DNA of 64,000 nucleotides from Candidatus Poribacteria bacterium (GCA_965208675.1 OZ242351.1:3648001-3712000), one strand, 5' to 3'. Positions 24,092 to 27,942 are shown, numbered from the stretch's first letter. The notes: generated by a model not told the origin, from the sequence alone. Numbers and translations are program-made.

Positions 24092-24706
24092 TTGATATTA
24101 CAATCCGATGAATTTCTCATTGATAAGATTCTTGAACGCGATGCGGAGGCGTTTGAAGTGCTTTGGGCACGATATAGCGCGTCCGTCCGCCGACACATCA
24201 TACGCACCGTACAGGACGAAAGTGCAGCCGAGGATTTGGTTCAGGAAGCATTCTTGCGTCTATGGACATCCGCTGAGCAGTGGGATGGGCGAGGCAACTT
24301 CAAGGGGTGGTTCTTCCGTATCGCCACAAACCTCGCCCTCAATCACCTGCGCGCCCTGCGTCGGCAGAAGCAACAGCCCCTCGAAATACCGCTGGACGAT
24401 TTTGATGATACGGACGACTACTCGTCCGACCCGGATTGGATGATTGACACATCGTTACGCAGTCCCGATGTGATGCTAGAACAAGCCGAGCAGTCTAATC
24501 TGCTCTGGCGGCTGGTTGAAGAACTGCCCGAAGATAAACGAGAAGTGCTTCACCTTGTATATCGGAAAGAGATGAATCTTCGTGACGTTGCCGCTGAGAT
24601 TGGCATCCCGGAAGGCACGGTGAAGTCGCGTTTACACTATTCCATAAAGCGTCTCGCTCAAGCATGGAAGGAGATTACAGGCGAATACGAGGAAGATAGT
24701 CAGTGA
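24092..24706 (+). CDS. ECF-type RNA polymerase sigma factor
   Basis: sigma2 AAEDLVQEAFLRLW...FKGWFFRIATNLALNHLR; sigma4 VAAEIGIPEGTVKSRLHY. TTG start is uncertain. Confidence 0.92.
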   Translation: MILQSDEFLIDKILERDAEAFEVLWARYSASVRRHIIRTVQDESAAEDLVQEAFLRLWTSAEQWDGRGNFKGWFFRIATNLALNHLRALRRQKQQPLEIPLDDFDDTDDYSSDPDWMIDTSLRSPDVMLEQAEQSNLLWRLVEELPEDKREVLHLVYRKEMNLRDVAAEIGIPEGTVKSRLHYSIKRLAQAWKEITGEYEEDSQ

Positions 24707-24729
24707 ACAAGCGAGGCTATTACTCGCCA

Positions 24730-24794
24730 CGCATTACGCATTCCGTATTACACATCACGATTCACGCTACACACTACACACTACACACTACACG
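24730..24794 (+). repeat. Heptamer tandem repeats (CTACACA x3 plus CTACACG, preceded by degenerate ACGCATT units)
   Basis: Exact CTACACA at 24767, 24774 and 24781. Confidence 0.7.
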
Positions 24795-24822
24795 AAATTC
24801 CCAATGGGAGGAGGAGACCGCA

Positions 24823-27800
24823 ATGTCACACAACATCACCGCATTATGGCACAAAAAATCTTTTGACCAACTGATGAACAATCGGCTGCCAGACCTACTC
24901 GCCGAGCGATTGCCGATAGCTGGCTACCATTTTGAACCTACCAGCACCTACACCGGTTGTATCAAAATCTCCCTCACGTCAACTGATGGCGACGTTGAAG
25001 TCGAATACACCGATATCCCGCAACCGGACAAGGAAGGGATGTTCAAAATTGACGGAGAAAACTATGTTGTCGTTCCAACGGCTTCGACTGATAACCTGAA
25101 AAAAGCGAAAATCAGATGTATTGGAGAGCAACTATATAGTTATATCAAAATGCGCTTGAAAGGTGCCACCTTAGACCTGTCATGGGAAACAGCCCCTGTA
25201 CGATCATGGCTCCCGCTTGATAAATGGATACAGGAATTCTTTCGTGACACATTTTACTCGCAGAAACTTCAGGAGACCAACTGGCTCGACAAGTATAGGC
25301 ATCTTCGACGGTTATACGTTCTGAACCGCGAGCAGGTATTCACGCCCTCCCACTTCGGGCGGGCATGCCCTTTCGAGACGCCAGAGGGGCCAAACATAGG
25401 TCGAATCCTTACGATTGCTAGGGGCGCCGAGATTCGCGGCGGAAAACTGGTCGTCGTTGATGAAAACCCCGAAGCAAACCTCGGCTTAGCATCGGCAATG
25501 ATCCCATTTCTTGAACACAACGATCCTGCCCAGACAATGATGGGGGCTAACATGTTGTGTCAGTGGATGGCGCCTTCGTCTCCGGAGACAGCTCCACTAC
25601 GCCAAGCCAAAGAGATACCGAGGTTGGCTGCTGCTCCGGAGCCCGCACTTGTCCAAACTGGTTTAGAACCGGATGTGCCCGACTTTTGGTGCGGTCGCAA
25701 CCTATTGACCGCTTTCATTTCTTGGGGCGGCGATACCTTCGAAGACGGCATCGTGATAAGCCGGTCGTGCGCAGCGCGTCTAAAATTTCCTTATGCAGTT
25801 GAACCCGGCGATAAGATTGGCAACCGTCATGGAACGAAAGGCGTCGTTTCGCGCATCCTGCCTGACGATGAGATGCCGCACCTTGCCGACGGTACACCGG
25901 TGGAACTTGTATTCAGTTTCGGTGGCTTGCACGCGCTAATGAACCTCGGTCAATTACGAGAGGCGGTGATGGGGCGTATTGCACGACTGGAAAATAAGCC
26001 AGCTATCGTGCCGCCATTCCGCGCTCCCTGTGCGGATGAATTGCGCGAACGCCTTAAGAACGCAGGACTTCCGGAAGATGGAATGGAACGCCTTACATTT
26101 GGGAGGAACGGTAATAAGGTGGGGCGGCATAGCACAGTCGGTTGGGTGTATTGGGGACGTCTGGCTCATATTGCGTTAGATAAAATAAAAGCCTCCGACT
26201 CAACCGATATTGAAGACCATAGGTACTTCCAAACACTTGGTGAACTTGAATACGATAGACTACGCAACGCCTCAGTACTTGAAACATTGAGGGAACATTT
26301 TAACACCCGCGCCATGAATCGGACTGATGCGCATACGTTAGCGGAGCGCGTCGCAATAGGCGAAGTTGAGCAGGCGGGTCCGCCGACGCCGATGTTCGCT
26401 AACCTCACGAATCGACTCTCGGCAGCAGGAATTTGGGCCGAACTCTACGGCGGCAAGTTGATTTTTAAATTTGGGCGACCGAATGGAAATACGCTCAAGC
26501 TTGCTCAGCCCGTCCCTTATCCGTGGTGCCGCGATCGAATCCTTGATGAAGTCGGGGTCCGTGAAGGCATGCCTGAATATCAGTCGCTTGCCGATGTCAA
26601 CGCCAGGGCTGACCGTATGCTTGCGAGTAATGCACCGGAAAGTTTAACCCGCCAAACCATCGTGCAGCTCCAAACCCGCGTCGCGGATTATGTCAATGCG
26701 CTCCTAAGCCCAACCGTCATGAACTTTAAGTCACGGAGCCTCTTCAGCGGACGCGCTGTCATAGCACCGGGTGCAGAGTTACACGCTGATCAGGTCGGTA
26801 TTCCGGAGGAGATGGCGTGGGCACTCTTTGGACATCATGTTACAAATCGGCTCGGTGATGCCGAAGAAGTACGGCGGCGTAGTCAAGGTGCAACACAAAT
26901 CCTGGATGAATTGATGGCGGGTTCGTGGGTAATTGTGCTTCGTCCACCGGCGCATACACTCACTAACCTCGTTGCGTTCCATCCGGTGCGGCACCCCGAC
27001 CGTGTCATCCGCGTGCATCCATTCGTGTGCGAGTTTATGAACGCCAATTTTGACGGCGATCAAGCAGCAGTCTTTCTCCCAATCACTGAAACCGGACAAC
27101 GCGAAGCCGGTGAACGGCTTTCCATCGCCGGGCATCTGAAACACGACCCAAGTTTATCCAAATTGCTGGCACCGACGCATGACGCGATGTGGGGATTGGC
27201 ACATTTAAGCCTCACCCCGGAAGGGCGCGGCGAAATCGCAGAGATTGTCGGAACCAACATCCCCGCCCCAGACGGTCTGGTTAGACAAGATTCGCTGGCA
27301 AAGTCACTAGAAGCCATCCTCAAATGCGATGGAATAGACCGCACGATTGAAATAGCCGAGCGTCTAATGCGGCGCGGGCTCGCAATTACTAAGGAATCGG
27401 GTGCCTCCATGAGCCCATTTATCAGTAGACCCGCTGGCAGCCCATCCGTTCCGGTAGATCCCGATGATGCACCCGCTTGGAACGCTCACGCAGAGGAACT
27501 TATCGAGTGGCTTGCCGCGTGTAACGACTTCGCGGACAACAACTTGGGACCGCACATCCTTGCGGCAAAAAGCCAAGACGCACGCAGTAGACTTTATCGA
27601 ATCGCTTGCTGTGTCGGGGCAAGAGGTACGGTTTTGGACCTTCGAGGAAGAGATATCATCGTTCGCAACGGGTATAGCGACGGTTTAACACCCGGTGAAC
27701 TTTACCCGCTTTCCGTCACTTCGCGGGAGGAGATTGTGCGGCTCAATTTGGAACGGCAACGGATAGAATTGGAATTGCGCAACGACAGTGAGCCAGCAGG

Positions 27801-27942
27801 ATTCACCGTCCTGGTGCGTGCAATGCGTGCCAAACACCCAGGTGTCGTTTTCGCCCGAGCCGCTGCAACCGGTGAGGTCGATCCGCTTACTGATGTGGAC
27901 AGCCGTCTTTTCGTCGGGCTACCTGTATCAACTGAGGAGTGA
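24823..27942 (+). CDS. Miniaturised single-chain RNA polymerase beta-beta' fusion homolog (~1039 aa)
   Basis: GGAGGAGG RBS. Beta motifs in order: HFGRACPFETPEGPNIG, IPFLEHND..MGANM, FEDGIVIS, PGDKIGNRHGTKGVVS, QTLGELE. Then beta' motifs: FSGRAVI, NANFDGDQ, PTHDAMWGL, DGLT, AAATGEVDPL. Confidence 0.9.
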   Translation: MSHNITALWHKKSFDQLMNNRLPDLLAERLPIAGYHFEPTSTYTGCIKISLTSTDGDVEVEYTDIPQPDKEGMFKIDGENYVVVPTASTDNLKKAKIRCIGEQLYSYIKMRLKGATLDLSWETAPVRSWLPLDKWIQEFFRDTFYSQKLQETNWLDKYRHLRRLYVLNREQVFTPSHFGRACPFETPEGPNIGRILTIARGAEIRGGKLVVVDENPEANLGLASAMIPFLEHNDPAQTMMGANMLCQWMAPSSPETAPLRQAKEIPRLAAAPEPALVQTGLEPDVPDFWCGRNLLTAFISWGGDTFEDGIVISRSCAARLKFPYAVEPGDKIGNRHGTKGVVSRILPDDEMPHLADGTPVELVFSFGGLHALMNLGQLREAVMGRIARLENKPAIVPPFRAPCADELRERLKNAGLPEDGMERLTFGRNGNKVGRHSTVGWVYWGRLAHIALDKIKASDSTDIEDHRYFQTLGELEYDRLRNASVLETLREHFNTRAMNRTDAHTLAERVAIGEVEQAGPPTPMFANLTNRLSAAGIWAELYGGKLIFKFGRPNGNTLKLAQPVPYPWCRDRILDEVGVREGMPEYQSLADVNARADRMLASNAPESLTRQTIVQLQTRVADYVNALLSPTVMNFKSRSLFSGRAVIAPGAELHADQVGIPEEMAWALFGHHVTNRLGDAEEVRRRSQGATQILDELMAGSWVIVLRPPAHTLTNLVAFHPVRHPDRVIRVHPFVCEFMNANFDGDQAAVFLPITETGQREAGERLSIAGHLKHDPSLSKLLAPTHDAMWGLAHLSLTPEGRGEIAEIVGTNIPAPDGLVRQDSLAKSLEAILKCDGIDRTIEIAERLMRRGLAITKESGASMSPFISRPAGSPSVPVDPDDAPAWNAHAEELIEWLAACNDFADNNLGPHILAAKSQDARSRLYRIACCVGARGTVLDLRGRDIIVRNGYSDGLTPGELYPLSVTSREEIVRLNLERQRIELELRNDSEPAGFTVLVRAMRAKHPGVVFARAAATGEVDPLTDVDSRLFVGLPVSTEE

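Follow-up and report, generated by a model that had tools for sequence, protein, structure and literature searches.

A conserved two-gene module pairing an ECF sigma factor with a miniature single-chain beta-beta' RNA polymerase homologue

Here we describe a two-gene module from the sponge-symbiont bacterium Candidatus Poribacteria, in which a gene for a sigma factor of the extracytoplasmic function (ECF) type is followed on the same strand by a gene for a miniature, single-chain homologue of the beta and beta' subunits of RNA polymerase (RNAP). The module lies at positions 24092-27942 of the window, the 64,000-nucleotide (nt) stretch of DNA that we analyzed (GCA_965208675.1 OZ242351.1:3648001-3712000), within a genome assembled as a single 4.89-Mb contig. 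That a conserved module of sigma and mini-RNAP exists we regard as close to certain. The best reading of its function, with a probability of roughly 0.4 for the whole chain of three steps set out below, is that of a sigma-controlled auxiliary mini-polymerase. In cells, a core of five subunits and about 400 kDa is generally regarded as the requirement for transcription, and the single-chain two-barrel enzymes known so far are, to our knowledge, phage or plasmid oddities, highly diverged and sigma-free. The new elements here are the coupling to a sigma factor and the cellular, vertically inherited context of a single-chain two-barrel RNAP.

By its domain content, the upstream gene (24092..24706, plus strand, 204 amino acids, aa) is an ECF (group 4) sigma with sigma-2 and sigma-4 domains only. 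It matches Pfam Sigma70_r2 (E-value 2.5e-18), Sigma70_r4 (1.2e-11) and Sigma70_ECF (3.6e-09), as well as Sigma70_r4_2, scores 117.4 bits against NCBIfam TIGR02937, above the family cut-off of 42.9, and has orthologues upstream of other copies of the fusion gene. The linkers of ordinary ECF sigmas are poorly conserved; among the orthologues of this sigma, the alignment reveals a conserved P-x-W-M/L-I/V-D motif in the linker between sigma2 and sigma4 and an acidic and aromatic C-terminal tail that is conserved as well. The ratio of nonsynonymous to synonymous substitution rates (dN/dS, Nei-Gojobori) of the sigma gene is 0.09-0.24, and a comparison with PADLOC gave a single weak match (E 0.0017).

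The second gene (24823..27942, plus strand) encodes 1039 aa plus a stop codon and directly follows the sigma gene, as the first-pass annotation of this DNA had it. The RNAP motif strings quoted there can all be read in the translation in the same order, and the matches are far beyond chance by their Pfam E-values. The reading frame is open for 1079 codons (24703-27942, plus strand), beginning at a GTG that shares bases with the stop codon of the sigma gene, an extension that follows from CTACACA-type short tandem repeats (24765-24795) in the 116-nt spacer between the genes (24707..24822, plus strand), which keep the upstream GTG frame open. The ATG at 24823 is taken as the conserved start, since it is preceded by the strong Shine-Dalgarno sequence GGAGGAGGAG (24807-24816) and close homologues are 1039 aa long. 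Numbered in the 1079-aa frame, Pfam matches comprise RNA_pol_Rpb2_3 (aa 188-244, 7.6e-09), RNA_pol_Rpb2_6 (aa 366-498, 2.4e-37) and RNA_pol_Rpb1_2 (aa 732-803, 1.5e-15), and beta blocks precede beta' blocks in NCBIfam, PDB and profile alignments alike. Against the rpoB model TIGR02013 the protein scores 165.8 bits in four separate stretches and against the rpoC model TIGR02386 75.6 bits over profile positions 328-499 only, far below the respective curated cut-offs of 801 and 963.5.

The linkage of the two genes is conserved without exception at the loci with upstream DNA. We recovered 40 loci (L007-L046, one genome per species, a lower bound), 37 of which have DNA upstream of the fusion gene. 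An ECF orthologue lies upstream on the same strand in all 37, directly adjacent in 36, and a metagenome locus, L086, brings the count to 38 of 38; this locus, 46% identical and ending short of the Asp motif, was the only one obtained from a metagenome scan with the homologue P0159. The module-type orthologues score 98-390 bits and are set apart from two other sigma-like open reading frames (ORFs) in those loci, which score 45-68 bits. Sigma and fusion genes overlap or lie at most 15 nt apart in 23 of the 37 loci, and the spacers of Poribacteria measure 73-263 nt. The sole separated pair is also from Poribacteria, where an 801-aa gene of the S9 prolyl-oligopeptidase family stands between the ECF and fusion genes on the same strand (L023:5233-7638). 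All-against-all clustering of the 2588 ORFs of the module loci uncovered no third conserved gene, the next real neighbour recurring in only 9 loci and the other large clusters being shadow frames inside the two genes themselves; neither an alpha nor an omega gene is linked to the module by the same clustering. The proposal in the first-pass annotation that this is a two-gene module is strongly supported.

Homologues of the mini-RNAP are intact and widespread, with more than 120 of full length. A word-indexed search of 5.8 billion proteins gave 3700 matches among 8000 scored candidates, and the best 120 of the 3700 share the Pfam architecture of the query, to which they are 50-94% identical over 95-100% of its length; at 990-1106 aa they correspond to the homologues of 1000-1100 aa for which the first-pass annotation had advised a search. 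Where members of these 120 bear a name it is 'hypothetical protein', and one, P0084, carries Pfam domain names only. When 1.84 billion 50%-cluster representatives were searched exhaustively with a profile, the best 150 included 65 full-length proteins (940-1110 aa), the others being fragments and six much longer, lower-scoring proteins (1613-2522 aa) that reach only 357-429 bits, like large canonical enzymes. None of the best 150 representatives is a sigma-polymerase (Rosetta-stone) fusion.

Carriers belong to at least seven phyla (Poribacteria, Chloroflexota, Armatimonadota, Planctomycetota, Latescibacterota, Kiritimatiellota and Hydrogenedentota), and those listed are bacterial chromosomes or metagenome-assembled genomes, all of them metagenome-assembled or uncultured. 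The distribution is patchy: the family occurs in 32 of 176 genomes of the host's own phylum, where it is present in 21 of 28 genomes of family f1, 9 of 11 of family f2 and 0 of 112 of family f4, and in 3 of 401 sampled genomes of Chloroflexota, the seed genome included. In a quick maximum-likelihood tree, which mostly follows phyla, the window protein falls inside a Poribacteria clade with a support of 97. The fusion gene is, to judge from its substitution pattern, under purifying selection, with dN/dS (Nei-Gojobori) of 0.11-0.16 among four Poribacteria that keep the first catalytic Asp (D-type) and 0.18-0.21 within the clade of the window; a ratio near 1, which had been named beforehand as evidence against the module, was thus not found.

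The mini-RNAP stands beside a normal enzyme in the same cell. Separate canonical rpoB (1787 bits, 1313-codon frame) and rpoC (1658 bits, 1433-codon frame) genes, whose presence the first-pass annotation had wished to see confirmed, are encoded at C1:4084267-4092391, about 410 kb from the module, and canonical rpoB lies above cut-off in four of five carriers of other phyla, the fifth being a frameshift-ridden assembly. Among 72,556 plasmid and 50,697 phage records, tblastn found none that covers at least 80% of the mini-RNAP; the matches obtained extend over at most 48% of the query at no more than 35% identity, and the annotated ones fall on rpoB or rpoC. The mini-RNAP has no match in PADLOC, and a PHROGs scan of the module returned generic RNAP and sigma families only. 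Three carriers show peculiarities of their own. A Latescibacterota genome, G178, harbors a 1923-codon frame with several rpoB-like stretches (G178:C1:33719-36163; 341 and 235 bits), which may be a further unusual RNAP paralogue in addition to the mini-RNAP and the canonical rpoB. In G049 (G049:C2:821095-824204) two frames, of 610 and 499 codons, make up the fusion gene, and in L037/G180 it lies in three pieces, probably through sequencing errors because canonical rpoB is fragmented in the same assembly.

The mini-RNAP amounts to about 38% of the combined length of host rpoB and rpoC (~2750 aa), and the map of the family profile onto the host subunits, together with the Pfam blocks, bears out the earlier description of a bacterial RNAP pruned to its conserved core. 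Retained are residues 473-558, 630-685, 766-805 and 1063-1292 of host beta and 299-543 and 731-828 of host beta'. Lost from beta are the N-terminal lobes and residues 806-1062, which form the flap, and from beta' the first ~300 residues, where one weak stretch only is matched, and nearly everything after residue 828 bar a weak, region-H-like terminal stretch. An AlphaFold2 (AF2) model of the single chain, built on an alignment of 121 sequences, is confident (predicted local distance difference test, pLDDT, 91.7; predicted TM-score 0.89) and replaced a poor one from 22 sequences (pLDDT 61, and below 50 over aa 214-522). Its best PDB matches by Foldseek are bacterial RNAP beta chains (E 2.6e-22), with beta' chains also listed, while the best viral structure matches in BFVD, giant-virus RNAP subunits, are weaker than the bacterial ones.

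Along the chain, all on the plus strand, a confidently folded N-terminal domain (aa 1-180, 24823..25362) is weakly similar to the N-terminal part of beta, with 44 of 180 positions at least 90% conserved. It is followed by the beta-like core (aa 181-535, 25363..26427), which comprises FETPEGPNIG, PFLEHND, GANM, the beta barrel and the beta C-terminal block; the fork-loop and Rif-pocket-like blocks are kept here along with PFLEHND and GANM, and motif conservation locates FEDG of the beta barrel at aa 306-309 (25738-25749) and GDKxxNRHGxKG at aa 329-340 (25807-25842). Only ~20 aa separate FEDG from GDK, which together with the unmatched residues 806-1062 of host beta identifies the flap as deleted. 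The clamp helices claimed in the first-pass annotation are recovered both by the profile alignment and by the AF2 model, as a coiled coil (aa 584-627, 26572..26703) of helices 584-601 and 606-627, both within the stretch that the profile aligns to host beta' 299-543. Next, the beta' barrel, which holds the active site (aa 628-760, 26704..27102) and is defined by Pfam Rpb1_2 and by PDB alignment to beta', leads through a helical region to a 32-residue helix in the AF2 model that is equivalent to the bridge helix (aa 957-988, 27691..27786). Since only 51 aa remain after this helix, there is no trigger loop; this C-terminal region (aa 989-1039) has 21 of 51 positions at least 90% conserved and includes a terminal block (aa 1006-1033, 27838..27921) that resembles the last conserved region of beta' and was detected as a weak HMMER stretch to the end of a beta' chain. 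Alignments and model agree that flap, lobes, Zn-finger N-terminus, jaw and trigger loop are all missing. The least conserved stretch of the protein is a ~20-residue Pro/Ala-rich loop at 25573-25638 (aa 251-272), which occurs only in the family-level Poribacteria clade of the window and, in a different form, in P0078, and which has the lowest AF2 confidence (pLDDT 62-65 over aa 251-270).

Conservation is concentrated where RNA would be made. The two barrels and the blocks that contact nucleoside triphosphates and the hybrid are the most conserved regions of the family (top-residue frequency 0.73-0.79), a full D-F-D-G-D-type triad is present in 110 of 121 family proteins, the second and third Asp are invariant in all 121, and GDKxxNRHGxKG is near-invariant. 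Among the 65 diverse full-length representatives, D-x-D-G-D is intact in 62 (53 DFDGD, 5 DYDGD and 4 DHDGD). Two barrels, with D-x-D-x-D in one and conserved basic residues in the other, are found family-wide, and the family belongs to the two-barrel (double-psi beta-barrel) RNA polymerase superfamily. The remaining 11 of the 121 proteins have Asn at the first Asp. The window copy is one of them, reading N-x-D-x-D within NANFDGDQ (aa 740-747, 27040-27063) with Asn742 in place of the first catalytic Asp; the first-pass annotation had included NANFDGDQ in its motif list and passed over this residue, which in nearly all relatives is Asp, without comment. As the triad and the barrel motifs are conserved, the family as a whole is, by the pattern of its residues, under selection for catalysis, which has been weakened or lost in several lineages.

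A conserved ECF-type promoter of the form TGAACYT-N13-CGGTGTC precedes the sigma gene. In the window it lies at 23952..23977 on the plus strand (-35 TGAACTT, 23952-23958; -10 CGGTGTC, 23971-23977), 115 nt before the sigma start codon. The pattern GAAC-N15-17-G[GT][TC]GTC is present in strict form in 30 of 38 loci and in relaxed form in five more, hence in 35 of the 37 with upstream DNA, one of the three loci that fail to match having no such DNA. A GAAC-type -35 with a GTC-type -10 is typical of ECF autoregulation, for which the module thus offers evidence from sequence alone. With a weight matrix built from 28 other loci, the window site scores 37.0 bits, a value inflated by the close relatives that contributed, and is the top of the 4.89-Mb genome, the runner-up reaching 17.6. 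The strict core pattern occurs twice in the genome (~1.2 expected), the second copy lying antisense within an open frame of 318 codons. In ten other carrier genomes there is likewise one promoter site at the module of each, and further pattern matches in these ten are no more numerous than those of a reversed-pattern control, except in G178 (7 matches versus 0). Two relatives carry additional copies of the promoter core pattern that are near-identical and alike in their inner sequence (G034:C1:350101, G034:C1:587641 and G035:C1:2460051); these probably lie in conserved or duplicated coding sequence. Judged by pattern and matrix, the sigma's own operon is its only recognizable target, and its promoter the only convincing site of this kind in the genome; the output of the module must therefore come from the second protein.

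These features can be joined in a mechanism of three steps. In the first, the sigma would bind the normal, flap-bearing core of the host and fire the operon promoter, giving positive autoregulation in which the mini-polymerase would be what the loop delivers. The canonical geometry of the -35 and -10 elements speaks for a sigma acting on the host core, and the first transcripts must in any case be host-made. In the second step, the mini-polymerase of most of the family would be a template-dependent, RNA-synthesizing two-barrel enzyme with an open cleft. Lacking flap, lobes, jaw and trigger loop, it would be mechanistically closer to YonO-type enzymes than to cellular RNAP, and from the conservation of its catalytic residues we think it fairly probable that most members are active polymerases. 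In the third and weakest step, the mini-polymerase would take up the same sigma through its clamp helices and act as a minimal holoenzyme. The clamp helices of beta' are the dock of sigma region 2 in the canonical holoenzyme; that they are retained, that the two genes are tightly coupled and that linker and tail of the ECF are conserved suggests that the mini-RNAP may use its own sigma, a step that we propose tentatively and hold to be somewhat short of an even chance. The fullest form of this idea, in which a sigma-dependent single-chain RNAP is promoter-specific with a 204-aa ECF on its clamp helices and without flap, alpha or omega, forming an orthogonal, self-amplifying circuit in at least seven phyla, is doubtful.

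Several observations weigh against a sigma-controlled auxiliary mini-polymerase. The flap is the canonical dock of sigma region 4, according to the part of PMC7824862 available to us, and its deletion makes the canonical holoenzyme geometry impossible. No wider regulon was found in the genome, and with this sigma alone the mini-RNAP would transcribe only itself. The bridge helix is the least conserved structured segment (0.49, with 2 of 32 positions at least 90% conserved), and the acidic pair of FEDG is variable across the family. Nine of the 11 Asn-type proteins constitute the genus-level clade of the window, namely the window protein and eight others at least 80% identical to it, and the remaining two are 67% identical to it. 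All three Asp of the triad are needed in E. coli RNAP, and the Asn of the window copy may reflect slowed catalysis, a different use of metal or a shift toward a binding role. In addition, the GANM-R-Q block has R246C in the window protein and in four of its eight clade mates. At 216 near-invariant columns, members of the genus clade count 10-14 departures where the median of the other proteins is 3, a comparison that is biased, as the columns were defined on the other group, and carries little weight. Finally, in 3 of the 65 representatives (P0159, P0160 and P0193; full length, 1039-1066 aa) neither the Asp triad nor the RHGxKG block survives. None of the three has another of them as its nearest relative, a pattern that suggests repeated loss of catalysis with the protein retained. 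A complex prediction for fusion residues 250-1039 with the ECF (0.27 and 0.26, against a mark of 0.32) speaks neither for nor against binding.

The first-pass annotation had offered a dedicated minimal polymerase or an RNAP-core mimic acting as anti-sigma or decoy. Conservation of the catalytic centre favors the polymerase without settling the choice between the two, and the loss of the flap, the Asp-to-Asn change in the genus of the window and the three ruined active sites keep a non-catalytic or sigma-independent role in contention. The strongest competitor grants the enzyme its activity and denies it the sigma: the sigma would be a regulator only, acting with the host core, and the mini-polymerase would work independently of sigma on nicks, gaps, single-stranded DNA, RNA or R-loops, for instance as a primer or small-RNA synthase or as a back-up polymerase when the main enzyme is blocked. 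The promoter geometry is just that of an ECF on a normal core, the catalytic motifs are conserved, and the removal of flap, lobes, jaw and trigger loop leaves an open cleft as in sigma-independent single-chain enzymes; moreover, if the sole recognizable promoter of the sigma is that of its own operon, the output must come from the enzyme acting elsewhere. Such a division of labor does not, however, explain why the clamp helices were kept, which are known chiefly for holding sigma region 2, why 23 of 37 loci have the genes tightly spaced or overlapping, in the manner of pairs that interact physically, or why the linker and tail of this ECF are conserved when ordinary ECFs do not need them. We consider it unlikely overall.

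In the second alternative the protein is a mimic of the RNAP core in which catalysis is secondary or dispensable, serving as an anti-sigma that gives negative feedback on its ECF, or as a binder of other RNAP ligands, among them sigmas besides its own, phage or toxin inhibitors and nucleic acids. Its gene occupies the usual place of an anti-sigma, downstream of and often overlapping the sigma gene, the clustering of neighboring ORFs uncovered no other conserved anti-sigma, and the clamp helices are retained. The Asn-type members, which are full length and still under purifying selection (dN/dS 0.18-0.21), and the three representatives with a destroyed active site, which are not nearest relatives of one another, fit a mimic as well. 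A pure binder, however, would not need the active-site blocks, which are the best conserved part of the protein over at least seven phyla, with D-x-D-G-D in 62 of 65 representatives; a sigma that targets only its own operon, joined to a protein that only holds the sigma, would be a loop without output; and the fusion matches no anti-sigma Pfam family at E ≤0.1 and nothing in PADLOC. We rate a core mimic as distinctly improbable. Last, a decaying rpoB/rpoC duplicate, an assembly chimera or a mobile or phage leftover without a function of its own, to which the split gene of G049 and the fragments of L037/G180 might point, is effectively refuted by intact homologues that agree in architecture and length (the best 120 proteins, whose assemblies are many and independent), by the linkage to an ECF gene and by dN/dS of 0.11-0.21, and is opposed also by the lack of any plasmid or phage record at 80% coverage or more, by housekeeping neighbors and by a confident fold.

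The mini-RNAP can be compared with several known systems. To a canonical core bound to an ECF, as in the M. tuberculosis sigma-H holoenzyme (5zx2, 6kon), it is clearly homologous in sequence over both barrels, the active-site blocks around them, the clamp helices and the first part of the bridge helix; the sigma beside it looks like an ordinary ECF of two domains, and the promoter combines a GAAC-type -35 with a GTC-type -10. In contrast, ~2750 aa of canonical core are replaced by one chain of 1039 aa that dispenses with flap, lobes, Zn-finger N-terminus, jaw and trigger loop and has no linked alpha or omega gene, in a host that keeps its normal enzyme. Full-length rpoBC fusions likewise place beta before beta' in one frame; such fusions are the cell's only RNAP. 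The models NF011417 and NF007172, which we take to be the Wolbachia- and Helicobacter-type fusions, span ~2840-2890 positions, and the mini-RNAP scores only 153.9 and 142.1 bits against them, missing the cut-offs of 4632 and 5372. ECF/anti-sigma operons resemble the module in autoregulation and in layout, a leading sigma gene being closely coupled to the gene after it; here, the second gene is instead an RNAP homologue without an anti-sigma domain, and no wider regulon was found.

Two further enzymes offer a comparison. As described in the portions of PMC6211774 available to us, the RNAP K2ORF6p of the yeast killer plasmid pGKL2 is also a beta-then-beta' fusion of about a thousand residues pruned to conserved regions, but it resides on a eukaryotic cytoplasmic linear plasmid, places the C-terminal regions of beta' on a separate small subunit, K2ORF7p, and has a capping enzyme and a helicase as partners and no sigma; the mini-RNAP, unlike it, keeps a terminal beta'-like block in the same chain. 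In the same portions of that paper, Sykora et al. 2018 wrote that a beta-then-beta' fusion was unknown elsewhere. The killer-plasmid enzymes retain the flap (SBHM) insert that the mini-RNAP lacks, a comparison made by description only, from partial text of PMC7824862. YonO of the prophage SPbeta is again a single chain of ~100 kDa with both barrels and no flap insert that exists beside the host RNAP (Forrest et al. 2017, excerpts of PMC5467207; PMC7824862), and is very distant from cellular RNAPs, phage-borne and able to transcribe phage genes without sigma (excerpts of PMC5467207 and PMC2919709). The mini-RNAP, in contrast, is recognizably bacterial beta and beta' at the level of Pfam, chromosomal and ECF-linked, with no copies found among the plasmid and phage records searched. 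In agreement with the first-pass annotation, which knew of no description, none of the family was found in the literature searched, whose coverage extends neither to Iyer and Aravind 2012 (J Struct Biol) nor to the supplementary lists, in the 2021 ECF classification, of each group's conserved neighbours; the main text of that classification (PMC7826278) makes no mention of Rpb1, Rpb2, rpoB or Chloroflexi.

Each reading carries its own consequences. If the mini-RNAP is active, its natural deletions define what RNA synthesis can do without, namely the flap, lobes, jaw, trigger loop, alpha and omega. Should it use its sigma, it would show how a promoter can be recognized without a flap and would offer synthetic biology a compact orthogonal transcription system of 1.2 thousand aa; no known RNAP that uses a sigma would then be smaller, and it would approximate, in a living cell, a minimal two-barrel machine. 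If it is a core mimic, it represents a new kind of anti-sigma or decoy. In any case, the closed loop formed by the sigma and its own operon poses a testable question, namely what the module does for the cell.

The surroundings of the module are housekeeping in character. Neighboring genes encode SMC, a short-chain dehydrogenase, an ankyrin-repeat protein, MFS, AAA, radical SAM and TPR proteins, and among them is no phage gene, integrase, ribosomal-protein gene or recognizable anti-sigma, in accord with the context reported in the first-pass annotation. The SMC chromosome-condensation gene (1200 aa) lies on the minus strand at 18437-22039, ~2 kb upstream of the module. The 20 sequencing runs listed as containing the sequence come from 12 studies and are mostly sponge metagenomes; all are of DNA or of unknown type, and none is of RNA. 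Between a haem-oxygenase-like gene and the sigma promoter, two adjacent minus-strand frames in different phases (23375-23760) both match the Glyoxalase/bleomycin-resistance family weakly and below threshold, and together they look like a frameshifted gene of the VOC family.

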